DNA of 64,000 nt, taken from Brevinema andersonii. Its GTDB lineage: Bacteria; Spirochaetota; DYKD01. The notes under the pieces are model-generated. The model did no database searches and had not been told where the DNA came from. It worked only from the letters and a program-made list of their open reading frames with translations. Each line of letters opens with the position of its first letter. Positions within the stretch are counted from its first letter, which is position 1. The DNA lies in NCBI GenBank assembly GCA_020722765.1, contig DYKD01000009.1:1718-65717 (forward strand), given 5' to 3'. The position numbers were made by a program, and so were the translations under genes. Shown piece after piece: positions 6,696-63,110 of the stretch.

Positions 6696-7166
6696 ATGGA
6701 CAACAAAATCATGGTCGAGAAGACCGAAAGAATCGAGCTCGATGTCTCATCATTTGAAAGCTCGGTAAGTGTCAGTTTCAGGTCATATCCAGATGACAAG
6801 AAACTCGGTTTCGCAAACGTCACTTACAAGAACGCATTTGGTGGAACAGAGACAAAACGCCTTACAGTATGGAAGAACCGTGATGGTTCTCCAAGAATAG
6901 GCTGGATCAAGACATACGATGGTTATACCACCAGTGTCTACAAACCGACTGATCCTGAGAAGTCGAAGTTCATCAATCCATCGGAAGGAAGTATCGACAG
7001 TATGACAAAATCAATTATCGATTACTTCGTGTTCAAAGCTGTGGCCGATGTCAAACAGCACATTGCTCCCAAACCCAGCACCAAACCGGCGAAGAAGATG
7101 GTGGATAATGCCGTTTCATCGAAGGATCTGCAGGATAGTCTGGAAGAAGCTTCAAAATCAGCCTAA
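6696..7166 (+). CDS. hypothetical protein
   Basis: TAAGGAGG SD. 156 aa. Confidence 0.65.
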   Translation: MDNKIMVEKTERIELDVSSFESSVSVSFRSYPDDKKLGFANVTYKNAFGGTETKRLTVWKNRDGSPRIGWIKTYDGYTTSVYKPTDPEKSKFINPSEGSIDSMTKSIIDYFVFKAVADVKQHIAPKPSTKPAKKMVDNAVSSKDLQDSLEEASKSA

Positions 7167-7170
7167 AGTA

Positions 7171-7206
7171 ACGGGGCATAGGGAAACCTATGTCCCGTCT
7201 TTTTTG
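7171..7206. terminator. bidirectional intrinsic terminator between convergent genes
   Basis: 12-bp stem ACGGGGCATAGG/CCTATGTCCCGT with a GAAA loop, a T-run downstream and an A-rich stretch upstream. Its 23-bp core recurs at 18588-18610. Confidence 0.8.
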
Positions 7207-7227
7207 GTTGAGGGCTTGAACTGCGGG

Positions 7228-7494
7228 TTATCTGACCTCTATCATCCGCGGTTTCTTCTCTTCCGCAGTAGGCATGTCAACTTCCAGCATACCATCCTCA
7301 TATTTGGCTGTAATGCGTGTCTGGTCTACATCGGTTGGCAGGAGGCGTCTGAATATTATACCATTGTCCCTGATACTGACAGTTATGGCATTGTTCCGGA
7401 CGCTTACCTCTATGTTCTTCTTCCCGATACCGGGAAGCGGTAGGGAAAGCTTGCCATCGGAATAGTCATAATTCCACATAGTTCCAAATATCAT
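7228..7494 (-). CDS. small heat-shock protein (Hsp20/alpha-crystallin domain, unusually short)
   Basis: LPLPGIGKKNIEVSV...FRRLLPTDVDQTRITAKYEDGMLEVDMP matches alpha-crystallin-domain (ACD) hallmarks. AAGGAG lies 8 nt upstream of the ATG (plus-strand CAT at 7492-7494). Confidence 0.75.
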   Translation of the reverse strand: MIFGTMWNYDYSDGKLSLPLPGIGKKNIEVSVRNNAITVSIRDNGIIFRRLLPTDVDQTRITAKYEDGMLEVDMPTAEEKKPRMIEVR

Positions 7495-7498
7495 AATC

Positions 7499-7527
7499 TT
7501 GACTCCTTGGAAAATTATGCACATAAT
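7499..7527 (+). promoter_or_regulatory. sigma70-like promoter TTGACT-17-CATAAT
   Basis: -35 at 7499-7504, -10 at 7522-7527. It points toward the gene starting at 7624. Confidence 0.45.
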
Positions 7528-7553
7528 ATAATGCCGGGCACACTGTAAATCAA
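7525..7553 (-). promoter_or_regulatory. sigma70-like promoter TTGATT-17-TATATT for the sHSP gene
   Basis: On the minus strand, -35 corresponds to plus 7548-7553 and -10 to plus 7525-7530. Its -10 overlaps the -10 of the + strand promoter. Confidence 0.5.
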
Positions 7554-7575
7554 GGCATCGAACCATATTGCCTTG
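7551..7575. promoter_or_regulatory. 7-bp inverted repeat (candidate operator or 5'-UTR hairpin)
   Basis: CAAGGCA (7551-7557) and TGCCTTG (7569-7575). The repeat overlaps the -35 of the sHSP promoter. Confidence 0.35.
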
Positions 7576-11480: not shown

Positions 11481-11758
11481 CCAATGATGACATCTCTTTG
11501 GTAAATATCGTATCGGTACTTACCCCCGAACAGAAAGCTGTTTTTGATAACAGCGGGCTTCACAAGGTCGTGGAAACATTCGGTACTAAGGAAGACAATG
11601 TCACAGTCCTAAAGACTGAGTTGGGCAATCTGGTAATAGCCGAGAATCTCAGGCATATCATACCGGTGAAAATAAATATGGATTTAAGGCATCCTGTACT
11701 CATGCTTGGCGCTTTCAGATGGAGGATATTCGACGACGGAATAGAAATTCATATCTAG
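11477..11758 (+). CDS. hypothetical protein
   Basis: ATGA overlap with the RNase H gene. 93 aa. Confidence 0.55.
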   Translation: MTNDDISLVNIVSVLTPEQKAVFDNSGLHKVVETFGTKEDNVTVLKTELGNLVIAENLRHIIPVKINMDLRHPVLMLGAFRWRIFDDGIEIHI

Positions 11759-11766
11759 GAGGCAGT

Positions 11767-14406
11767 ATGATCGTCCATGTTGACGGAACTGCGATAGACA
11801 TATCCCGGACAAGAAATACCAAGGACAATTTGCTCATTGTCATCAAGGTAACCGGGAACATAGTCAGAAACTATGAGCTGGAAGTGGTAGATTATAAGGC
11901 TATGACTAGCCGATCTACGGTTGAATTTGCCCCAATCCATATGGATTCCAAAGGCAATATCATCGTCAATAATCATGTTGTCATAACCGAAGACAATCTA
12001 ATAAGACTTAACGATGGAACATTCGAGAACTCAGCAATAACGAACGAATTCAATGCTCAGAAGATATTGAATAGAACAATCATAGATAATCCTATCTATG
12101 GCGCACTATTCTTGGCTATTACAGGAAAGGAACCTGAATCTATCAACATGTTATCTCTCAATGATGTAAATGAGATCATCAGTAATAGGGACATTATACC
12201 TAAGATCTGGAATGTCAAATATAAAGGTCTCCATATATGGCGTCTTAATCAGAGAGAAGAATATGTATATCAGGCTGTACTCAGAAAAGTTTACCAGATG
12301 GTATTTGAGAATCTAACAGAATCAAGGCTCAAGTATGCCATACGAAAACTGAATCTTTCCAAACAGGAAGCTATCTTCAACAAGCATCAGGCAATTGCAG
12401 CAAGCCATAAGGTTGATATCCCATGGGAAGCTGGCATGATAAACATGCTGGAATATGATGCCAATCTGATCCCTAATGATACCCCGCAGAACGGAAACGC
12501 AGGTCTGGTTGTCGCCAAAGTCTATAAGGAACAGAATGGAAAACGTTTCTCATATCTTCAGTGGATAAACCAATGGGCTGAAAACTGCTCCCCTAACCGG
12601 CAGATTGTAGCTAGATATGTCACTCAGATTTGCGAACTTACAAACCGGAACTTCAAGGACAATCTTGTCAACCTCTTCGCTGCCAGAATGACATACATGG
12701 GATATACGCTAGAAGATGGTTGCGTCATATCTGAAACAACCGCCGAGAAATTCAGATGTTACGACATCAATATTGACAGGTTCATAGTCCGCAATCCAAA
12801 ACTGACGGTCCAACCTCTCGCCAATTTCGACGCATACATGTACGAATACCTGATACAGGATGATGCGCCATTTGTCAACAGGGGTTACCTTGGAACATAT
12901 AATGGTGATAACGAAATCAGAAGCAAATATTATGGCATAGTCACCAATATTGACATAACAGAAACGGAAATCGAAGGTGAATACCTGGTCATTGTCGAGA
13001 CCACATCAGTATTGAGATTACGTGAAGGGGATAAGTTAGCTGATTTGCATGGCAACAAAGTCACAGTAACAAAGATACTGCCTAGTGAACTGATGCCAAG
13101 AGCTTGTGGTAAATATCTTGATATCATTGTCCCACCATGGATTGGCAAACGCGGTTCTGCAAGCAGACTGAAAGAAGAGGAACATTCAACGGTTCATAAT
13201 GTCGCAGTAGTGACAGATTCCCTGAATGACACATTCTATCAGGATGTGGCGGTAGGTCATGTGACCTATATCCGGTTAAGCCAGCATGCAAAGAAGAAAC
13301 TCAACTATAGCCATAAGACAGAAACCAATTATATGGGGCTGGTACCTAAAGGTTATGGGTTGTACAGTTTTGCAGATGCAATGTACCACATGGAAGCGGT
13401 TGGTGCCAAAGACCTGATGATGGAAATCCTAAATAGGACATATGATACAAACAGTCCAGAACTCCTGAATCAGCATCTCAAATGCTTCGGCTTCGAACTG
13501 ATAAAGGGTAGAATTACAGGGCTTTCAAAGACCCCATTCTTCACTGCTCCTGATAATGATATTATCCTAGACAAATTCGTTAATGCTGAAGAGATTGCAA
13601 CACTTGCAGATCCTACCGGTACGGTCCTTGATCCTAGAATATTATATTCTCATTCATGGATAAGAATACCTGAAGGATTACAGCTGACTTTCCATGCCCT
13701 TACCTCGCAATTACGTATCCACAGCTATGACCATGAATATGTGACACACAAGCTGGTAGATGATATGAGCTGGATGAAACGCTATGATATAAGTTTCGGC
13801 CATCTGATGACAGATGGTAAGAAACAGGTATTCATCCGCATACCTCCCGGATTGCGGACATGGACAACGAAGACAGATACAGTGACCTTATCAGATATTC
13901 AGCATCAGTTAAACCAGCTGATAATGCAATTGAAGACATATGAGCAGACAAGGTTCAGGGCCATGCAATTTGATCCTTCAAGACGAATCAATATGCTCGT
14001 GAACAAGCTGTTGGATTCGATGCTGTCAAGAATATTCACGAAATCAGGATTACTCCGCAACACCATCCATCCAAGAACAAAGTTCTCCATGAATGCGGTA
14101 TTAGGCTCGAATCCTGAACTTCCACTTGACACATGTGAAATCCCATTAGAAGCATTCCATGATTATCTCAAAGATGAGGAATTCCGCAAAGCATATGGAC
14201 TAAGTGAGATAGAAGACCCTGACATAGGCGAGATTAATTTCGCCATTGAAAAGATGGATGCAAGATGCCTCGTAATGAGAAATCCTGCACATCAGGTAAG
14301 GAACTGCCAAGGAATGCGATTTAGAGTATGGGCTGGAAATTCAATCAGGATAAATCCGGCAATCGTCAAAGTCTTCGATAAACAAAACAATCTCCGTATG
14401 TGTTGA
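11767..14406 (+). CDS. single-chain beta/beta-prime-like RNA polymerase, 5' exon (raw ORF; the last ~11-17 codons are probably intronic read-through)
   Basis: AGGAGG SD. Beta motifs: MGYTLEDGCVISE, GDKLADLHGNKVTVTKILPSELMP...DIIVPPWIGKRGSASRL and FADAMYHMEAVGA. These are followed by the beta-prime motif RNPAHQVRNCQGMRFRV...IRINP. Confidence 0.8.
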   Translation: MIVHVDGTAIDISRTRNTKDNLLIVIKVTGNIVRNYELEVVDYKAMTSRSTVEFAPIHMDSKGNIIVNNHVVITEDNLIRLNDGTFENSAITNEFNAQKILNRTIIDNPIYGALFLAITGKEPESINMLSLNDVNEIISNRDIIPKIWNVKYKGLHIWRLNQREEYVYQAVLRKVYQMVFENLTESRLKYAIRKLNLSKQEAIFNKHQAIAASHKVDIPWEAGMINMLEYDANLIPNDTPQNGNAGLVVAKVYKEQNGKRFSYLQWINQWAENCSPNRQIVARYVTQICELTNRNFKDNLVNLFAARMTYMGYTLEDGCVISETTAEKFRCYDINIDRFIVRNPKLTVQPLANFDAYMYEYLIQDDAPFVNRGYLGTYNGDNEIRSKYYGIVTNIDITETEIEGEYLVIVETTSVLRLREGDKLADLHGNKVTVTKILPSELMPRACGKYLDIIVPPWIGKRGSASRLKEEEHSTVHNVAVVTDSLNDTFYQDVAVGHVTYIRLSQHAKKKLNYSHKTETNYMGLVPKGYGLYSFADAMYHMEAVGAKDLMMEILNRTYDTNSPELLNQHLKCFGFELIKGRITGLSKTPFFTAPDNDIILDKFVNAEEIATLADPTGTVLDPRILYSHSWIRIPEGLQLTFHALTSQLRIHSYDHEYVTHKLVDDMSWMKRYDISFGHLMTDGKKQVFIRIPPGLRTWTTKTDTVTLSDIQHQLNQLIMQLKTYEQTRFRAMQFDPSRRINMLVNKLLDSMLSRIFTKSGLLRNTIHPRTKFSMNAVLGSNPELPLDTCEIPLEAFHDYLKDEEFRKAYGLSEIEDPDIGEINFAIEKMDARCLVMRNPAHQVRNCQGMRFRVWAGNSIRINPAIVKVFDKQNNLRMC

Positions 14407-21948: not shown

Positions 21949-22420
21949 GGAATCATTCCTGCACTATTATCCTACAGGTTTATATCTCAAGATCCCTGAT
22001 ATGCCAAGGGGACCAACAAGCAGGTTCATTCCGATGAAGCCATTCGATATCATACTGTTCATCAGGGATAAGGCGATAATGATAGAAGCCAAACTGCTCA
22101 AGAACGGGAAAACATCTGTCAACCTCGGCGATAGGCCAGGCCAGAACATGCTCCGGCAACTGAGGGAACTATCCTATCTGTCCTCGCTTAACCACGAATC
22201 ATATCTGGCAGTGGAAGTTGTAGGCAAATTCCGCGGTATGGCCGAGAAAATAAAGAAGTGCTATTTTTTTACTCCGGACAGTCTGATTGAACTGCTGGCA
22301 ACCCAGAAATTCGATGTTCCAATGGTAATGAGGAACGGTATCGAGATACCGAGAAAAGGTGCCTATTGGGACCTTAGCGTAATATTAGGCAAAAGCCAAC
22401 AAGGAGAAAATAATGATTAA
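21917..22420 (+). CDS. PD-(D/E)xK-type nuclease (possible junction resolvase)
   Basis: The pattern E...KIPD...PFDIILF...IMIEAK fits a D...ExK nuclease core. Confidence 0.5.
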   Translation: MRESQFHSEIKESFLHYYPTGLYLKIPDMPRGPTSRFIPMKPFDIILFIRDKAIMIEAKLLKNGKTSVNLGDRPGQNMLRQLRELSYLSSLNHESYLAVEVVGKFRGMAEKIKKCYFFTPDSLIELLATQKFDVPMVMRNGIEIPRKGAYWDLSVILGKSQQGENND

Positions 22421-23012
22421 CAGCCTGTTTGTACCCCAGATTCTGGAGAGGAAAGATGATCGGACAATGAGCTATGACCTGTTCTCAAGGATGTTCGAAC
22501 AGCGTATCATATTCCTGCACGGCGAAATCGAACCGTATATGGTACAGGTTGCGATCGCTGAACTGCTTTATCTTGGCGCCAAAAGCGATGATCCTATCAA
22601 GATGTACATAAACAGTCCGGGCGGATCCGTGATTGACGGTCTTGCAGTCATTGATACCATGAATGCGATCAAGGCCCCAGTATATACCTTCTGTACCGGA
22701 ATGAGTGCTTCTATGGGCGCAGTAATTCTAGCTAGCGGTGAGAAAGGACACAGATATGCTCTCTCCAGTTCAGAGATCATGATTCATGAAATCGCCAGTT
22801 CCATACATGGGAAATTCAAGGACATGAAAGTCAACTTCGAGCATTCCACCAGGCTTCAGGACAAGCTATACAGGATACTGGAAAGCACTACCGGACAGAA
22901 ATATGAAGTGATCGACCGTGAATGCAAAATCGACAAATGGTTTACTTCCCATGAGGCAAAAGACTTTGGTCTCATTGATACCATCCTTGAAAAGAACCAA
23001 GGCACAGTATAA
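22413..23012 (+). CDS. clpP: ATP-dependent Clp protease proteolytic subunit ClpP
   Basis: Contains INSPGGSV, GMSASMG (catalytic Ser), MIHE (His) and an Asp region DRECKIDKWF. AAGGAG SD. Confidence 0.9.
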   Translation: MINSLFVPQILERKDDRTMSYDLFSRMFEQRIIFLHGEIEPYMVQVAIAELLYLGAKSDDPIKMYINSPGGSVIDGLAVIDTMNAIKAPVYTFCTGMSASMGAVILASGEKGHRYALSSSEIMIHEIASSIHGKFKDMKVNFEHSTRLQDKLYRILESTTGQKYEVIDRECKIDKWFTSHEAKDFGLIDTILEKNQGTV

Positions 23013-23031
23013 GCGATAATAAGGAGACAAG

Positions 23032-25185
23032 ATGATTACCGTAGACAACGAAGTATACTACGTCCCGCAAGCGATCAAACCAAAAGAAAAAGTCAGAGGT
23101 ACCAGGATATTCCAGTCGATCGCATCGGTTTGTACCAAGATAGGTAAGACATATCTGGCGGAGATCGCCCAGGAAATGGCGAAATTATCCAATAAGACAA
23201 CTACCATAGATACCGTACTTGAGCGCGCAAAAAGCATCACCTTGAGGGATGCCCGCACTGAAGTCAACATGCACGACCTCATAATAGCTACAATGATGGA
23301 AACAGGTATCCAGAACCAGAAGATACTTCAGGTAGTTACCAGATTAGGTGTAGGCAACTCGCCGCTTTATTCGCCACTTGTCGGTAACATACTCCCTGAT
23401 GCCCTGGAGGCGGTCATCGTCGGACGCAGCAACGAGATTGCGAAAGTAGCAATGATGATGAACAAGCGTTCCAGAATCATCGCTCTTGTAGGAAATAAGG
23501 GCGTGGGTAAGAACTCAATCGTGACTGGCGTAGCAAAGGCCATAGCTTCGGGTAAGTTCCCAAGCCTGCATTCAGCTATCCTGGACCTGAACCGCATACT
23601 AGATTTCACCGCCAAATTGGCACCTGAAAATGACGCCAAGAGGATCTTCTTACCAACTGCCATGCTAGAAGATAAGAACTGCTATGTATATATCAACCAT
23701 GAACAATTCGCGAGATCCGTGAATATCATGGATGCTATCGTCTTCCTGATCGACAATGGCCTCAATATCATCCTGAATACCACAGCAGATTACATCAAGC
23801 ATGTGGAAAAGAACGCCAACCTGTTCCATCACATCGAACGTCTGGATGTGGAACAGATGCCGAAGGACCTTGCATTGCAGGCCATCAAGATCTCCAAACC
23901 GCGGATAGAGGAGAAATACATGTGTGAGATTCCGGATTCGATCTGTGAGTTCACAATGAGCATATCCTCGCGGTTCCCGATGGAACAGTCCCAGCCAGGC
24001 AGGACTCTCACTATCCTGGAACAGGCGGTCGCCGTGAAACGGCTCGGTAATCTTGATACAATCGAGAACCTCAATAAGACTGATATTTCCAAGCTGCTGC
24101 TGGACCAGAAGTACCAGGAAGCGAAAGAGCTGATAACCACCAACCATGATTATATCATGACTGGCCTGAAAATAAGCAGAATCATCGTGGAAGAGAAGGA
24201 TATCTCCGACCTGATGGTATCCCATCTGGGAATCAGTCCGAATGTACCGGCAGGTGCTATCACTTCCGACAGCATCAAACAGCTCAGTTTCCTTGAGACA
24301 TATGTCAATGAATACGTCTTCGGGCAGAAGGAAGCTGTAAAGGCCATCTGCGATTCGATCCGCAGAAAGGCGCTGAACATGACAACTGAACATACACCTC
24401 CAAGTTTCCTATTGGTAGGAACTACAGGTACAGGTAAGACATATACTGCCAAGAAGATCGCCGAACTCATGTTCGGTAGCGAGAACGCGCTTATCAGGAT
24501 TGACATGTCGGAATATACCGAACGCCATACCATCTCAAAACTGGTAGGAGCCCCTCCCGGATATGTGGGATATGAGGATGGCGGGCAATTAACGGATAAA
24601 GTCCGCAAGCGGCCACATTCGGTTATCCTACTTGATGAAATCGAGAAAGCGCACAAGGAAGTCCTAAATATCCTGTTGCAGGTCTTATCGGATGGCAGAC
24701 TGACTGATGGCAAAGGAAGGACAGTGTCCTTCAGCGAGTCCATAATAATCATGACATCAAATCTGGGTACTAAGTCCCAAGTTGGCGATATCGGTTTTGG
24801 CGCGGATACTACGAAGATCACCAAAACCAACGTCATGGATTCCGTCAAGGCATTCTTCTCGCCTGAGCTGTTCAACAGGATAGGCAGAATTGTGATGTAC
24901 AACAGTCTTGGTAAGGAAGAGATCCGCAGGATAATCCTACGTGAACAGGATATAGCCTCCAAGAATACAAAATTCAAGTTGCAGTTCACTGAGAAAGTGA
25001 CAGCATATCTTGAGAAGAAGATCGCCGATAACGGTAACGTCGAGATTTATGGAGGTAGGGAAGTCAACAGACTAGTACAGGAACACCTGTTCGACCAAGT
25101 TACTGAAATGATACTCAAGTATGGGAAAACCCCGACAGAAGTATCGGTTGATTATGATACAGAACTTAAAGTGAGCGTAAAATGA
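23032..25185 (+). CDS. ClpC/ClpA-type double-ring AAA+ unfoldase with a degenerate first AAA+ ring (D1)
   Basis: The second ring (D2) has GTTGTGKT, ILLDEIEKAH, GAPPGYVGY and TSNLG...DIGFGA (ClpP-docking loop). D1 has Walker A GNKGVGKNS and Walker B VYINHEQF. Confidence 0.9.
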   Translation: MITVDNEVYYVPQAIKPKEKVRGTRIFQSIASVCTKIGKTYLAEIAQEMAKLSNKTTTIDTVLERAKSITLRDARTEVNMHDLIIATMMETGIQNQKILQVVTRLGVGNSPLYSPLVGNILPDALEAVIVGRSNEIAKVAMMMNKRSRIIALVGNKGVGKNSIVTGVAKAIASGKFPSLHSAILDLNRILDFTAKLAPENDAKRIFLPTAMLEDKNCYVYINHEQFARSVNIMDAIVFLIDNGLNIILNTTADYIKHVEKNANLFHHIERLDVEQMPKDLALQAIKISKPRIEEKYMCEIPDSICEFTMSISSRFPMEQSQPGRTLTILEQAVAVKRLGNLDTIENLNKTDISKLLLDQKYQEAKELITTNHDYIMTGLKISRIIVEEKDISDLMVSHLGISPNVPAGAITSDSIKQLSFLETYVNEYVFGQKEAVKAICDSIRRKALNMTTEHTPPSFLLVGTTGTGKTYTAKKIAELMFGSENALIRIDMSEYTERHTISKLVGAPPGYVGYEDGGQLTDKVRKRPHSVILLDEIEKAHKEVLNILLQVLSDGRLTDGKGRTVSFSESIIIMTSNLGTKSQVGDIGFGADTTKITKTNVMDSVKAFFSPELFNRIGRIVMYNSLGKEEIRRIILREQDIASKNTKFKLQFTEKVTAYLEKKIADNGNVEIYGGREVNRLVQEHLFDQVTEMILKYGKTPTEVSVDYDTELKVSVK

Positions 25186-25919
25186 ACATCATCACATACA
25201 ACACCCCATTTACCTGCATGAACAATTGTCCCGGTTGTTACCTGAAAAAGACAATGGATATGTCAAATATCGACATGATAAAAGGCATGTCCAATCTGTC
25301 CACATTATTAGTAGCAGATAAGAAGGCAACACTCGTGATTGCCATGATGAACAACAGGAAAGTGTATGAACATGTGGATATCCTTCTTAAGAAGACCAAG
25401 CATCTACGTAAGTATAGGGAAACTCACATATTGGCAAATGTAGAAGGATATGATTGCAACAGTACCGGTGAACTGTTCTACAAATGGAATTTGGATGAGA
25501 TCAGCTTATCATGTGATATTGACAAGTATGAAAAAGCCATCTCATTGATGGCGGCAACAGAAGCCATGGCTAACAGGAAAATCAGGAAGACAGTGATAAC
25601 GGTACTGGATAGGCAGAATCCCGAGGAACTTGTATCGAAGATAAAGCGGGCACAGGCGACAGGAATCATCGATGAATTCCATCTCTTGCCATTGATAGAT
25701 GCCGGCGAAGTTACGAAAATGGAACGGACTAACCGATTCCTACCGACGATAATGAAACTGACACTTGAAAACCCGACATTCCCAGTGCATCTTACTGGAT
25801 GTGTGTCATGCTTCGGAACGGACAGGTGTCCGGGAATGGATAACGGATATTTGGAAATCACAGGACGTGATATCCAGAGGGTATGTCCTTACGGTGTACA
25901 GAAGGAGTGCGGCAAATGA
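25182..25919 (+). CDS. radical SAM enzyme (small, with a C-terminal Cys cluster)
   Basis: N-terminal CMNNCPGC (CX3CX2C). C-terminal CVSCFGTDRC...C...C. ATGA overlap with the ClpC-like gene. Confidence 0.7.
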   Translation: MNIITYNTPFTCMNNCPGCYLKKTMDMSNIDMIKGMSNLSTLLVADKKATLVIAMMNNRKVYEHVDILLKKTKHLRKYRETHILANVEGYDCNSTGELFYKWNLDEISLSCDIDKYEKAISLMAATEAMANRKIRKTVITVLDRQNPEELVSKIKRAQATGIIDEFHLLPLIDAGEVTKMERTNRFLPTIMKLTLENPTFPVHLTGCVSCFGTDRCPGMDNGYLEITGRDIQRVCPYGVQKECGK

Positions 25920-29339: not shown

Positions 29340-30568
29340 ATGGGCAAGGCTGGGAAATCACTGCTTGATCCTGCTACTGAGGAGATTTCCGGCACAGAAG
29401 CCCTACCTGCTAAGAAGATACAGAAACAGATCTACCGTAAGATAGAGGATCTGTATGATTTTGTGTCTACAGGTGTCCCTGTCATGTTCGTACATGACAG
29501 GGACATCCGGGGTTTCTTCTGCACGGACAATACGAAAATCGGGATCGGACCACTATTGGATACACATAAGATCTATATGATGTCACAAGGTTTCAGCATG
29601 ATCTCGATCGAGAAACAGAAATTGGCGAATCATACCATCAAGTTCACTGAAGTGAACGCGCCGGATGAGATAGGAACAATGTCACCAATAACGAATCCGG
29701 CACTGGGCCTGGATTATTTCCTCGACAAGATGCCGACAAAAATTGTAGGTGAAACAACAGATGCAGTCCTGGTTTTGTCATATGATCCGGATATAATCAA
29801 TGACAATAACAAGATAACAGGCACCTTAAGGGACCATTATAATGATATGGTCATGACGATCCAGCGTGACATCGTGAAAAGACGACCAAACCAGCACGTT
29901 AACACAAGGAATAGTCCTACACTACATACATCAGTGGGAGAATATGATCCAGGCTCAAACGATGGAACGCCAGAATCCATTCCTTCTAGAGTTGTGATAA
30001 TATTGAGTTCGAGACCGCAATTACCTCCAAGGCTAAATGGTTATTGTCTCAATGTTGGCACAATCATCAGACATTTGGTCTCGAATACGAAAGGTGAAAA
30101 CAGGTTACCACATAGCCTGACAAGTAGCCTCACCACTACTGAAATACTATTGGCACAAAGGTTATATGATACATCGGCTGATGATGCGAAAGTAAAACGC
30201 TTCAGAAAAGCGGTATTCACTTCCAATAATGTCATTGAAGACATTACTGATTATCCGTCCATGAAAGACATAGGCGGGTATGATAACCTGAAAGCGTTCA
30301 TCGAAACTAGGAAGACATTGCTTGATAAGTACTATAATAAGATGCTGGAACGTAATCTGCAGATCAAAGGTATCTTCATTGCAGGTGTTCCAGGATCCGG
30401 TAAAACCCAGATATTGAAAGCCCTAGGTTCCTACTGGGGATTGCCGGCATACCGTTTACGGCTAGAAGCGGTCTTCGGCAGATATGTCGGAGATTCGGAA
30501 AGTGCGCTGATTTCGGCGCTGGAAAACCTGCAGAAACTGTCCCCTTGCTTCGTATTATTGGATGAGAT
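29340..30568 (+). CDS. classical-clade AAA+ ATPase (CDC48/FtsH-like module), 5' exon
   Basis: Walker A GVPGSGKT, then YVGDSE, then Walker B FVLLDEI at the exon end. The raw ORF runs on to 30596. Confidence 0.8.
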
Positions 30569-31193
30569 TAAATTATCAGTCTCCTTGGCGGCGTGAGCCG
30601 TCATGAAAAAGCGGGTCAATTGCTGGAAACCCCTTAAGCCTATTAGGCTACAACATAATCCGCAAGGATAAGTGTGAATGCTTGAAAACTAATAGGATTG
30701 GACAATCAGCAGCCACTTCCTGGGAACAGGAAAGGTTCAGAGACTACGAGTCCGCTAAGTTGGCAGCCAGCTTCTTCTAGTAGATAATATACTAAATACT
30801 AGAAGGAGTAGGCTATGATGTATAACATTGTACAAGCATCAAAGATGCTAAACAGAAGCAAACGAGAAGCTGTACTAGAACTAGATAATAATGAATGTCA
30901 GTTATGTGGCGATGACCAAGATTTGGTCGTACATCATATAGATGAGAAAAGCAGTAGAAATTCAGATACTCCAAATAATAGTTTGGATAATCTGATTACG
31001 CTCTGTAAACAATGTCATTATTATTGTCATTGGCATACTAGATTTAATGCTATTAAGCATAAAATTCTAGTTATTGCCGACAAGTTCAAGTTATTTATTA
31101 GTGATCAACTTAAAGATATAGTCCGAACTCGTATGAGAATACGAGAGGATGGCAGAAATGACCATCCAGCCGGATAACCGGTGTTAACAGTTG
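30569..31193 (+). mobile_element. group I intron carrying an HNH homing endonuclease
   Basis: R element GTTCAGAGACTAC at 30735-30747. S element AAGATATAGTCC at 31113-31124. P7 pairs GACTA with TAGTC. P1 pairs GAGAT (30564-68) with GTCTC (30579-83), with a U-G at the splice site. P10 pairs TTATCA (30573-78) with TGATAA (31194-99). The terminal intron G (omega-G) is at 31193. There are several GNRA hairpins. Confidence 0.85.
30815..31177 (+). CDS. HNH homing endonuclease (intron-encoded)
   Basis: CQLCGDDQDLVVHHID...NLITLCKQCHYYCH. GGAG SD. AT-rich relative to the flanks. Confidence 0.85.
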   Translation: MMYNIVQASKMLNRSKREAVLELDNNECQLCGDDQDLVVHHIDEKSSRNSDTPNNSLDNLITLCKQCHYYCHWHTRFNAIKHKILVIADKFKLFISDQLKDIVRTRMRIREDGRNDHPAG

Positions 31194-31689
31194 TGATAAG
31201 TCATTAGCAGGAGTAGGAGAAGGTGAAGTAGCAGGTTCCGATGTACCTAAGAGGGTCTTCGGTATCCTATTGGATAAGATGGCTGAAAGTACAGGCATCA
31301 TTTTCGGTGCCAGTGCCAACAGGGTAAAATCCATACCAGAGGAATTCATGAGACGTGGTCGTTTTGACCGCATCTTCTTCATGGATCTTCCGGATATAAA
31401 AGCTAGGATGAAGATCATATCTATCCATCTAGGCAAGCACGGTTACGATCATAAGCAGTTCACACATGATGAACTGACACAGATGGTTGATTCAATGGAT
31501 AAGTTTACAGGTGCGGAAATCGAATCGGTGATTACTGAGGCGATTATCCAGTCCCTGGTAGACAATGATGGTAAGCTTACTGCTAGCCATATCATAAAGA
31601 AAGCCAACGAAACAACAACCATCGACAAGAACAAAACAGACATCAAGGAACTCGCTGCATGGGCTGAAAAGTTCGCAACGAAGGCCTGA
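31194..31689 (+). CDS. classical-clade AAA+ ATPase, 3' exon
   Basis: The spliced junction reads LLDEI|DKSLAG. ASANRVKSIPEEFMRRGRFDRIFFMDLPD matches the sensor-1/Arg-finger/second-region-of-homology (SRH) pattern. Track ORF 31270..31689 has no SD. Confidence 0.8.
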
Positions 31690-62178: not shown

Positions 62179-62466
62179 ATGAAAAGCAAGGTATTACATC
62201 TTCATTGTAACCCAGGCTGCCATCATCTGACTTTCACAGCAATATTCAAAAACTACCATTGCGCATCGGATGACATAGACGAATGGTACATATCGTTCTT
62301 CGGCAACCTGTTCTATGAAGGTCAGTCAACATGGTGGACAAGGCTCAAGTATAGGCTTGAACTTATCTGGGCAATCATAAGAGGCAAGGAATACCGGCTC
62401 TTTGACATGGTAGTATCAGATAAGAACATGAAGGAATTCGTAAGGAAGTATCAGAGCCACAAATGA
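62179..62466 (+). CDS. hypothetical protein
   Basis: AGGAG SD. 95 aa. Confidence 0.5.
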   Translation: MKSKVLHLHCNPGCHHLTFTAIFKNYHCASDDIDEWYISFFGNLFYEGQSTWWTRLKYRLELIWAIIRGKEYRLFDMVVSDKNMKEFVRKYQSHK

Positions 62467-63110
62467 CAAGGAAAACCAGAGCGCTATTGAAGGATATGGC
62501 TGCCAGAAACGCGAAACATTCGATGTCCCTGAAGGATGTGGGGACTAAAGATCTTCGGACATCTTGCAAATGCAGGACACGCCATATGGATGAATTAATA
62601 CTGGAAGGAGAACAGGATATGCAACAAGATGATAAACCAACTAACCAGGTTACGGTAGGGATCTCACCGCAAGATGGGATAAGATCATCATCCGAACCTG
62701 ATATGAAGGATAGTGGGGAACGCCAGGTTTTCGCCACAGGTGCAGTCAGGGATGCAGCAGGAGGCAAAGCTATGCTTAGCCTTATCTCGCCCTTGTTTGA
62801 GGAAAGGCTAGGCCAATGGCTTACGCTCGGTGCGAAAAAGTACAGTGCTGACAATTGGGCACAGGGTATTCCTATGCGCCGTACATTTGACAGCCTGATG
62901 CGGCATGTCAACCAATACAGGTTAGGCGACCGCTCGGAGGATCACCTGGGTGCCATAGCATGTAATGCAATGTTCCTCATTCACTTTGAGGAAATGATTG
63001 CAGCCGGTCTTCTGCCTGCAGAACTGGATGATCTGCCAAGATTTAAGGAAGAAGAGCCAAGGAGATACCTGGTACATCCTAACAACAGGAGAAAAGATGA
63101 TCATATGTGA
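62463..63110 (+). CDS. protein with a domain resembling the phage dATP/dGTP diphosphohydrolase N-terminal domain (DUF5664-like)
   Basis: RQVFATGAVRDAAGGK...LGAKKYSADNWAQG...LMRHVNQY..GDRSEDHLGAIACNAMF matches my recollection of that family. Confidence 0.45.
   Translation: MTRKTRALLKDMAARNAKHSMSLKDVGTKDLRTSCKCRTRHMDELILEGEQDMQQDDKPTNQVTVGISPQDGIRSSSEPDMKDSGERQVFATGAVRDAAGGKAMLSLISPLFEERLGQWLTLGAKKYSADNWAQGIPMRRTFDSLMRHVNQYRLGDRSEDHLGAIACNAMFLIHFEEMIAAGLLPAELDDLPRFKEEEPRRYLVHPNNRRKDDHM

Follow-up and report, generated by a model that had tools for sequence, protein, structure and literature searches.

What might a phage do with a ClpP protease subunit and a double-ring Clp ATPase of its own, when one of the two rings of that ATPase appears to have lost the residues that hydrolyze ATP? 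The question is raised by two neighboring genes at positions 22413–25185 of a stretch of 64,000 nucleotides (nt) from contig DYKD01000009.1 (assembly GCA_020722765.1, deposited as Brevinema andersonii), which we call the window and take to derive from a phage. Annotations of Clp genes are common in the genomes of large phages and, to our knowledge, none of these genes has a known role. Our analysis suggests that the pair probably constitutes a phage-borne, self-contained ClpCP-type ATP-dependent protease, wherein the second AAA+ ring (D2) of the ATPase would be the sole motor and the first ring (D1) would be retained as a scaffold.

The ClpP–ATPase gene pair

A scan of the window for open reading frames (ORFs) recovered both genes at exactly the coordinates reported in an earlier note on this DNA, with products of 199 and 717 amino acids (aa). 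They can be resolved into the following features:

22413–23012, plus strand: ClpP proteolytic subunit, 199 aa (Pfam PF00574, NCBIfam, alignment to solved ClpPs, catalytic-triad columns)
23032–25185, plus strand: Hsp100/Clp double-ring AAA+ unfoldase, 717 aa, most similar to ClpC and ClpE (phmmer, PHROG, AlphaFold, Foldseek)
23032–23394, plus strand: N-terminal domain of the ATPase, residues 1–121, helical, without a detectable sequence family
23395–24066, plus strand: D1 AAA+ module, residues 122–345, fold kept, catalytic residues lost
24067–24243, plus strand: middle insertion and linker, residues 346–404, short and helical (ClpC alignment, model)
24244–25182, plus strand: D2 AAA+ module, residues 405–717, fully canonical (Pfam, alignment)
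24790–24798, plus strand: IGF tripeptide, residues 587–589, in the ClpP-docking loop of D2

The upstream product matches the Pfam CLP_protease profile (PF00574) as a full-length domain (1.3e-57, profile positions 5–181 of 182) and can be aligned over its whole length with ClpPs of solved structure (Francisella 5g1q, 6e-46), such that GMSASMG falls on GLAASMG, MIHE on MIHQ and IDKWF on RDNFM. When it is aligned with 117 homologues, its catalytic triad is complete: the columns of Ser100 (GMSASMG) and His125 (MIHE) hold S and H in 117/117 of them, and that of Asp174 (KIDKWF) holds D in 112/117. This upholds the view of the earlier note that it is a bona fide ClpP with the expected Ser, His and Asp features. 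The N-terminus that forms the axial loops is also kept (LFVPQILER...YDLFSRMF, gapless against LVPTVIEK...FDIYSRLL of 5g1q), with P8, S25 and R26 in invariant columns. The protein is 44–53% identical to bacterial ClpPs and scores below the NCBIfam cut-offs (TIGR00493, 181.9 versus 308.6; PRK00277, 208.7 versus 249); hence, going by its sequence, we would class it as a divergent member of the family (MEROPS S14) and not as an equivalog of the housekeeping ClpP of bacteria.

Only two close relatives of this ClpP were found, P0272 (65% identity) and P0273 (62%; the ClpP of the metagenomic contig L001). These three viral ClpPs feature a Glu after the catalytic His (residues 125–126, window positions 22785–22790), in place of the Gln of the IHQ motif that is present in 117/117 of the others. 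They further depart from the rest of the family at three positions which, going by the E. coli ClpP numbering, we take to line the hydrophobic docking pocket:

F82-equivalent: Tyr or Phe in 109/117 others, Ala or Met in the viral clade
I90-equivalent: Ile in 88/117 others, Phe or Tyr in the viral clade
M92-equivalent: Val, Ile or Leu in 109/117 others, Thr in the viral clade

These substitutions are compatible with a co-adaptation of the viral ClpPs to their ATPase partner. As a separate observation on phage ClpPs, a group of phages represented by the loci L170–L172 codes for versions 49–53% identical to that of the window, whose gene comes right after one for an S-adenosylmethionine synthetase and is followed by very large ORFs (2474 aa), with no Clp ATPase nearby.

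The downstream product recovers B. subtilis ClpC as its top match in phmmer searches of the PDB (5e-85, a single continuous alignment over ATPase residues 122–696), followed by ClpE and S. aureus ClpC, and it matches PHROG 4871, "ATP-dependent protease", at 1e-121. Its AlphaFold model has a mean predicted local distance difference test (pLDDT) score of 77.6, and the top Foldseek matches of this model are ClpC–ClpP and ClpC1P1P2 complexes. Two tandem AAA+ modules and a D2-small domain can be recognized, with matches to both Pfam AAA_2 (1.9e-59) and ClpB_D2-small. The middle insertion is of ClpC length or shorter, with predicted helices within residues ~349–385 (352–357 and 361–381). Thus, the best matches to ClpC/ClpE–ClpP complexes, the short middle insertion and the adjacent ClpP gene all favor a ClpP-partnered unfoldase over a ClpB-type protein, as the earlier note had argued. 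Its label of "ClpC-type" stands only as a statement of resemblance in sequence and fold; it does not extend to membership in the family, as no NCBIfam cut-off is reached and no Pfam match was obtained to Clp_N or to the UVR motif (PF02151) that most ClpC homologues possess.

D2 displays every catalytic motif in its canonical form on alignment, as had been noticed earlier for its Walker motifs. Walker A (GTTGTGKT, 24418–24441) and Walker B (ILLDEIEKAH, 24625–24654) both align with those of the ClpC D2, and are accompanied by the pore loop GYVGY, a sensor-1 TSN, an Arg finger NRI and a sensor-2 GGR. The residues K469, T470, Y511, D535, E536, N577, R616 and R676 of these elements occupy invariant columns in an alignment of 45 sequences. 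In the same module, the segment GDIGFGA aligns with the ClpC segment KYVGFNV in both HMMER and MAFFT alignments, placing I587-G588-F589 on VGF, with G588 and F589 in invariant or nearly invariant columns. The tripeptide is therefore located within, rather than outside of, the ClpC docking loop, where the earlier note had placed it. Residues 582–594, right after the D2 sensor-1 strand, are modeled with a pLDDT below 50, as expected of a flexible ClpP-docking loop. An IGF or MGF tripeptide is likewise found in the docking loops of the relatives P0002, P0121, P0123 and P0264, which are discussed below.

The N-terminal domain matched no Pfam family, and a profile built from five relatives gave no match in the PDB for residues 1–120. 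AlphaFold models show five helices, with one of the five models being confident, and nearly all of the top 30 Foldseek matches are N-domains of ClpC, ClpA or ClpB, albeit weak ones (E 0.03–0.7, TM ~0.4). Hence, we take it to be a highly diverged, possibly Clp_N-derived domain, and we presume that it is a substrate- or adaptor-binding module.

The two genes are separated by only 19 nt, with ClpP upstream. An AAGGAG-type ribosome-binding site precedes each ORF (at 22402–22407 for ClpP and 7 nt upstream of the ATPase), and no terminator-like site was detected on the plus strand between them. Given that the ClpP ORF overlaps the 3′ end of the gene before it and the ATPase ORF overlaps the start of the gene after it, we read the two as likely parts of a single, tightly packed transcription unit. 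The pairing of an Hsp100 with ClpP is seen again in the independent contigs L001 and L002. In the case of the relative P0002, the ClpP gene lies ~500 nt upstream of the ATPase gene with two small ORFs in between. On L001 these (positions 7085–7496; 53 and 79 aa, no family) take the place of the 19 nt of the window, and they could be adaptors, regulators or mere insertions. Directly downstream of the pair in the window, a 245-aa ORF (25182–25919, plus strand) overlaps the stop codon of the ATPase. It displays an N-terminal CX3CX2C motif (CMNNCPGC) reminiscent of radical-SAM enzymes and matched no Pfam or PHROG family; a 255-aa ORF without a Pfam match is also found shortly downstream of the ATPase on L001.

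The first AAA+ ring and its relatives

The earlier note had further claimed that D1 is a pseudo-ATPase ring, based on the replacement of the Walker A Thr by Asn and the loss of both Walker B acidic residues. These differences persist after proper alignment, and the damage turns out to be more extensive. The Walker A motif (23491–23517, plus strand; residues 154–162) reads GNKGVGKNS versus GEPGVGKTA in ClpC, with Lys160 kept and the Mg-coordinating Thr replaced by Asn161; this column is nearly invariant in the 45-sequence alignment and holds T or S in 80/80 of the viral Hsp100s that we examined. The Walker B motif (23683–23706, plus strand; residues 218–225) reads YVYIN--HEQ versus ILFIDELHT in ClpC, with the Asp replaced by Asn and the catalytic Glu absent, and the GAG loop of ~10 residues that comes after it is deleted. 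Further, the pair of Arg fingers has been substituted by His residues (ERRFQ in ClpC, FHHIE here), and the pore-1 Tyr has been lost (KYRGEFE in ClpC, KLAPEND here). Thus, at least five catalytic or pore residues and one loop are gone, giving a signature of K-N-N-gap-H-H-L versus the K-T-D-E-R-R-Y typical of the family (the latter in 146/269 Hsp100 sequences). Yet the α/β/α AAA fold of D1 is predicted with a pLDDT of 80–90. Based on these motif losses we strongly infer that D1 is dead as an ATPase.

In our search for relatives, which covered 5.8 billion proteins, a single close relative of the ATPase was recovered: P0002, 63% identical and found on two independent metagenomic contigs. It has the same remnants in D1, namely GGKGIGKNT, YVYINHEQF, the His-His pair and no pore Tyr, along with the same GDIGF loop. 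The D1 modules of the two proteins are 60–67% identical, with the degenerate motifs themselves conserved (GxKGxGKN, YVYINHEQF, HH). When the window is compared with its relative on L001, the proportion of differing nonsynonymous sites (pN) is 0.25 in D1, 0.18 in D2 and 0.38 in the N-domain, whereas that of synonymous sites (pS) is saturated at ~0.74, such that the contrast between pN and pS is usable but a ratio of nonsynonymous to synonymous rates (dN/dS) is not. The low pN against a saturated pS points to purifying selection on D1, slightly weaker than that on D2. As D1 is constrained and its degenerate motifs are conserved, these observations indicate a retained non-catalytic role for D1 rather than decay.

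More distant relatives allow the path to this state to be traced. HMMER, run exhaustively over 1.84 billion representative proteins with ATPase residues 1–400 as the query, returned only 15 matches at E ≤ 1e-10, of which P0121, P0123 and P0264 are the nearest and share the unusual N-domain of the window protein. Their D1 modules compare as follows:

P0264: Walker A, Walker B and Arg fingers canonical; pore Tyr lost; docking tripeptide MGF
P0121 and P0123: GKT of Walker A kept; Walker B Asp kept and Glu lost (D-G and D-N, respectively); Arg fingers lost; pore Tyr lost in P0121 (Leu), the column reading Tyr in P0123; docking tripeptide MGF and IGF, respectively
Window and P0002: Walker A Thr replaced by Asn; Walker B Asp and Glu lost; Arg fingers replaced by His-His; pore Tyr lost; docking tripeptide IGF

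A neighbor-joining tree of D2 alone unites the window protein, P0002, P0121 and P0123 in a clade with 95/100 bootstrap support, with the placement of P0264 reaching only 13/100. Hence, the loss of hydrolysis in D1 probably predates the lineage of the window, in which it then went further. The gene for P0121, on the 120-kb contig L083, adjoins one for a fused RNA polymerase β/β′ protein, followed by genes for a uracil-DNA glycosylase (UDG), a single-stranded DNA-binding protein (SSB), an AAA protein and RecA, as in the window.

To gauge how unusual this is among viruses, we drew on the IMG/VR database, in which at least 432 pattern-confirmed Hsp100 loci and at least 587 ClpP loci were detected, and examined the best 80 of each with 10 kb on either side; the ClpP loci were found by a profile search, and their neighbors were scanned with a ClpC query that detects ClpX only weakly. 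D1 is canonical in 80/80 of these Hsp100s (loci L003–L082; GK[ST], IDE[LIM]H, KYRG, RRFQ), and a ClpP was found within 10 kb in 0/80. Conversely, an Hsp100 lies within 10 kb in 2/80 of the ClpP loci, and its D1 is canonical in both. The frequency of the pair in phages, a point raised in the earlier note, is thus low in this sample. Across the 269 Hsp100s compared, the Walker A Thr, both Walker B acidic residues and both Arg fingers are all lost in the window protein and P0002 only; in a few other metagenomic Hsp100s (P0216, P0254, P0208 and P0129), D1 is degenerate in part and the docking loop is VGF-like. The contigs of P0216 and P0254, as well as that of P0127, another Hsp100 with a degenerate D1, are short and uninformative. 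A degenerate D1 in an Hsp100 is therefore rare but not unique. The IMG/VR survey also brought to light a large, apparently uncharacterized family of viral Hsp100s of ~670–700 aa, mostly with a [VI]GF loop, and those of L003–L082 presumably use the ClpP of the host.

Proposed mechanism and competing explanations

Based on the above, we propose that the 717-aa protein would form a ClpC-like, two-tier hexamer, of which D2 alone would bind and hydrolyze ATP and grip the substrate by means of its GYVGY pore loops. The IGF loops are predicted to enter hydrophobic pockets on a tetradecameric ClpP, most probably the one encoded by the phage itself, much as the VGF loops of ClpE and ClpC dock into the H-sites of their ClpPs (PMC13125188), and the unfolded polypeptide would be passed into the chamber with the Ser100-His125-Asp174 triad. 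D1, which lacks either of the usual substrate-gripping loops, would be a conserved non-catalytic scaffold that might at most bind a nucleotide via Lys160, with no hydrolysis of ATP; its likely roles would include the cohesion of the hexamer, the extension of the axial channel and the positioning of the N-domain. The diverged N-domain, in turn, might pick phage-specific substrates or adaptors. We infer the assembly of the hexamer, its docking to ClpP, the silence of D1 in practice and the degradation targets, whether host or phage proteins, from the features described above.

Several points weigh against this proposal. In ClpE, a single Walker B mutation in D1 strongly lowers proteolysis (PMC13125188). 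A naturally dead D1 would thus need compensation or a low unfolding demand, and by the same token its presence in a ClpP-docking enzyme is mechanistically notable. The binding of nucleotide by D1 promotes the formation of the hexamer in ClpA, ClpB and ClpC, and Asn161 may weaken such binding in the window protein. Moreover, the flanking DNA that could be read around P0121, P0123 and P0264 (19 kb of the 120-kb L083) yielded no ClpP gene. As this applies to P0121 and P0123 of the sister clade, a dedicated ClpP would not be obligatory in this protein family, and the actual partner, or a further one, may be the ClpP of the host.

A more elaborate version of the proposal, which we offer only tentatively, is that this locus represents a natural, stepwise conversion of a two-motor Hsp100 into a one-motor, phage-private protease. 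Here, the viral clade would first have given up the hydrolysis of ATP by D1, as the Arg fingers and the Glu of Walker B disappeared, a state seen in P0121 and P0123. The lineage of the window would then have lost the coordination of Mg-ATP along with both D1 pore loops, and would have come to carry its own, pocket-altered ClpP. Such a machine would have a nucleotide-free D1 as its scaffold, and its N-domain might aim it at host proteins, e.g., defense or housekeeping factors, during takeover.

Turning to the alternatives, the ATPase might dock mainly onto the ClpP of the host, or onto mixed rings of phage and host ClpP, and thereby re-target or swamp host proteolysis, with the phage ClpP as a booster or modifier and a non-exclusive partner. 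The absence of a ClpP within 10 kb in 80/80 of the IMG/VR Hsp100 loci, most of which have the [VI]GF loop, would fit such a scenario, as would the lack of an adjacent ClpP in P0121 and P0123; the 44–53% identity of the phage ClpP to bacterial ones makes mixed assemblies conceivable, and ClpE has been found to be interchangeable between the ClpPs of two species (PMC13125188). We nevertheless regard it as rather unlikely, since the ATPase and ClpP genes are paired in all three contigs of the window lineage, and the lineage-specific changes at the three presumed pocket positions and in the IHQ motif suggest a specialized pairing.

It is quite improbable, in our assessment, that the ATPase functions without ClpP, as a ClpB-, ClpG- or ClpL-like chaperone or disaggregase acting with a phage-encoded small heat-shock protein (sHSP), IGF being a relic and ClpP a separate entity. 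The IGF or MGF tripeptide is kept across the whole viral clade, the long middle domain of ClpB (~120 aa) is missing, and no N-domain of the ClpG or ClpL type was matched in Pfam or NCBIfam. The single best NCBIfam score is indeed to the ClpB model, as such a chaperone might lead one to expect, but this match is over D2 only (residues 337–707; 332 bits versus a cut-off of 1232). Further, a dead D1 without pore loops would make a poor disaggregase: single Walker B mutants of ClpE, in either ring, lose disaggregation first (PMC13125188). An HSP20-type sHSP is encoded in the window and many phage ClpPs are orphans, both of which would suit an independent chaperone; however, the sHSP gene is 15 kb away and on the opposite strand.

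The high divergence of D1, which is the most diverged AAA module of the protein (29% identity to ClpC as opposed to 56% for D2), could also be taken to mean that it is merely decaying towards a pseudogene or a D2-only protein, with motif losses devoid of functional meaning. This is very improbable: the ORF of 717 codons is intact, D1 remains 60–67% identical across lineages whose synonymous sites are saturated (pN 0.25), the degenerate motifs are themselves conserved residue for residue between the window and P0002, and D1 is confidently predicted to adopt the AAA fold. On account of the intact ORF, the constrained D1 and the conserved remnants, we rejected the reading of the ATPase as a pseudogene.

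Finally, it is hardly credible that the ClpP homologue is a capsid (prohead) maturation protease beside an unrelated ATPase, and we rejected this reading on the ClpP-model scores, the axial N-terminus and the gene neighborhood: its top PHROG matches are labeled "head maturation protease" (phrog_94, 2.8e-33) because of the shared ClpP fold, but it scores 77.8 bits with the head-maturation model NF045542, below the cut-off of 120, as opposed to 182–209 bits with the NCBIfam ClpP models, it combines an axial-loop N-terminus with 44–53% identity to cellular ClpPs, and it is encoded in a replication or early-type module with nuclease, UDG and SSB genes as neighbors and no capsid or portal genes detected nearby, all in keeping with the opinion of the earlier note that it is not merely a prohead-protease relative.

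The proposed phage-borne protease is thus best compared with the ClpC–ClpP (B. subtilis and S. aureus ClpC, M. tuberculosis ClpC1) and ClpE–ClpP systems, with which it has in common the two stacked AAA+ modules, the short middle insertion, the [VI]GF of D2 and a canonical ClpP; the D1 pore loop of ClpE also lacks an aromatic residue (Ile194; PMC13125188). The window protein differs from ClpC and ClpE in its D1, where the loop that follows Walker B, both Arg fingers, the Asp-Glu pair of Walker B and the Thr of Walker A have all been lost; ClpE needs hydrolysis by D1 for its full activity (PMC13125188). Moreover, in contrast to those proteins, it has no Clp_N, zinc-finger N-domain or UVR recognizable in its sequence, scores far below the NCBIfam cut-offs, and is encoded by a phage beside its own ClpP. 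The closest case of a degenerate D1 described in the literature is the Plasmodium apicoplast ClpM, a plastid-encoded ClpC paralogue whose D1 is without canonical Walker A and B motifs and is presumed to be inactive as an ATPase (bioRxiv 10.64898/2026.05.20.726455). However, ClpM lacks a ClpP-binding motif (bioRxiv 10.64898/2026.05.20.726455), whereas the window protein keeps it and its gene adjoins one for ClpP; the degeneration of D1 arose independently in the two.

Among phages, the jumbo phage Atu_ph07 has been annotated with ClpX, ClpA, ClpB, ClpP and ClpS, and Rak2-like phages with ClpA; the only roles discussed for these genes are in replication control, assembly or the clearance of aggregates (PMC6102473). 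In Atu_ph07 these genes are scattered (gp2, gp155, gp292, gp492, gp676 and gp708) and no degenerate ring was reported, unlike the adjacent pair of the window, whose proteins are at most ~31% identical to their matches in Rak2-like phages. The viral Hsp100s of L003–L082 resemble the window ATPase in having a truncated or absent Clp_N and are 31–34% identical to it, but their D1 is canonical. A division of labor between a structural or oligomerization tier and a ring that does the mechanical work is seen in the D2 of NSF and the D1 of PEX1/PEX6. These proteins are members of other AAA+ clades and lack a partner protease; hence the likeness is by analogy only. Phage Clp genes as such are not new; what is new is a conserved, catalytically degenerate D1 in a putative ClpP-docking Hsp100 that is paired with its own ClpP.

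This has implications on two fronts. With respect to the AAA+ mechanism, the division of work between the rings has been tested with engineered Walker B mutants, which cripple the enzyme (ClpE, PMC13125188); the window ATPase and its partly decayed relatives provide a ready series for studying what D1 contributes beyond the turnover of ATP. With respect to phage biology, the adjacent genes of this ClpP–unfoldase operon, with their new N-domain, offer a tractable candidate system of phage-private degradation. Were the pair only a diverged ClpCP of the housekeeping type, the finding would be a modest catalogue entry.

Phage context and neighboring genes

The window is gene-dense, mostly coded on one strand and without tRNAs, and belongs to a contig of at least 66.7 kb. 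It encodes a phage-type replication and recombination module:

Replication: family-B-like DNA polymerase, primase-helicase, helicases, clamp-loader subunit
Recombination, repair and other functions: RecA, Rad52, SbcC-like protein, Cas4-like nuclease, UDG, SSB, RNA polymerase β-like protein

This one-strand module, the PHROG matches and an intron carrying an HNH endonuclease fit the phage origin assumed in the earlier note, and we accept, on the strength of the gene content, that the source is an uncultured phage of an uncharacterized lineage with large genomes. No close relatives were recovered when the locus was compared by megablast with 50,697 GenBank phage records, and the best tblastn matches of the locus in GenBank phages are at most 34% identical, many of them in unannotated fragments. 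The DNA polymerase of the window likewise has matches of only ~25% identity, in Vibrio, Aeromonas and haloarchaeal viruses.

Two further genes had been linked to the Clp pair in the earlier note as a phage "proteostasis set". The sHSP is real (HSP20/α-crystallin, Pfam 3.2e-10), but its position had to be corrected to 7228–7566 and its strand to minus, which sets it apart from the other ORFs examined around it, all of them on the plus strand. The AAA+ gene at 29340–31689 (plus strand) is real as well and of the classic clade, but it is not a continuous frame, being split by a group I intron at ~30570–31190 (Rfam RF00028, 65.1 bits, E 5.6e-16). It interrupts the gene just past the Walker B motif (FVLLDEI) and carries an ORF for an HNH homing endonuclease (30815–31177); an uninterrupted orthologue of 559 aa on L083 places the exon junction at ~30569/31183–31195. 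The set is thus best described as a list of co-occurring genes. Another type of selfish element is seen in the same gene neighborhood in a relative: in P0123 (L084:598–4101), an intein with a LAGLIDADG endonuclease sits inside the Walker A motif of D2 (GSTGVGK|C...SHN|T).

Elsewhere in the window, a 215-aa ORF (62463–63110, plus strand) resembles the N-terminal domain of a dATP/dGTP diphosphohydrolase (PF18909, 2.3e-19). This is the enzyme of the MazZ type, which is tied to phages that replace adenine with 2-aminoadenine. An 895-aa protein (11719–14406, plus strand) has a match to domain 6 of the RNA polymerase subunit Rpb2, and the β/β′ fusion of L083 (3147–6773), immediately upstream of the Clp ATPase gene, is a 1208-aa protein that combines Rpb2_6 and Rpb1_2 domains. 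These domain matches suggest that phages of this lineage code for an RNA polymerase of the multisubunit type.

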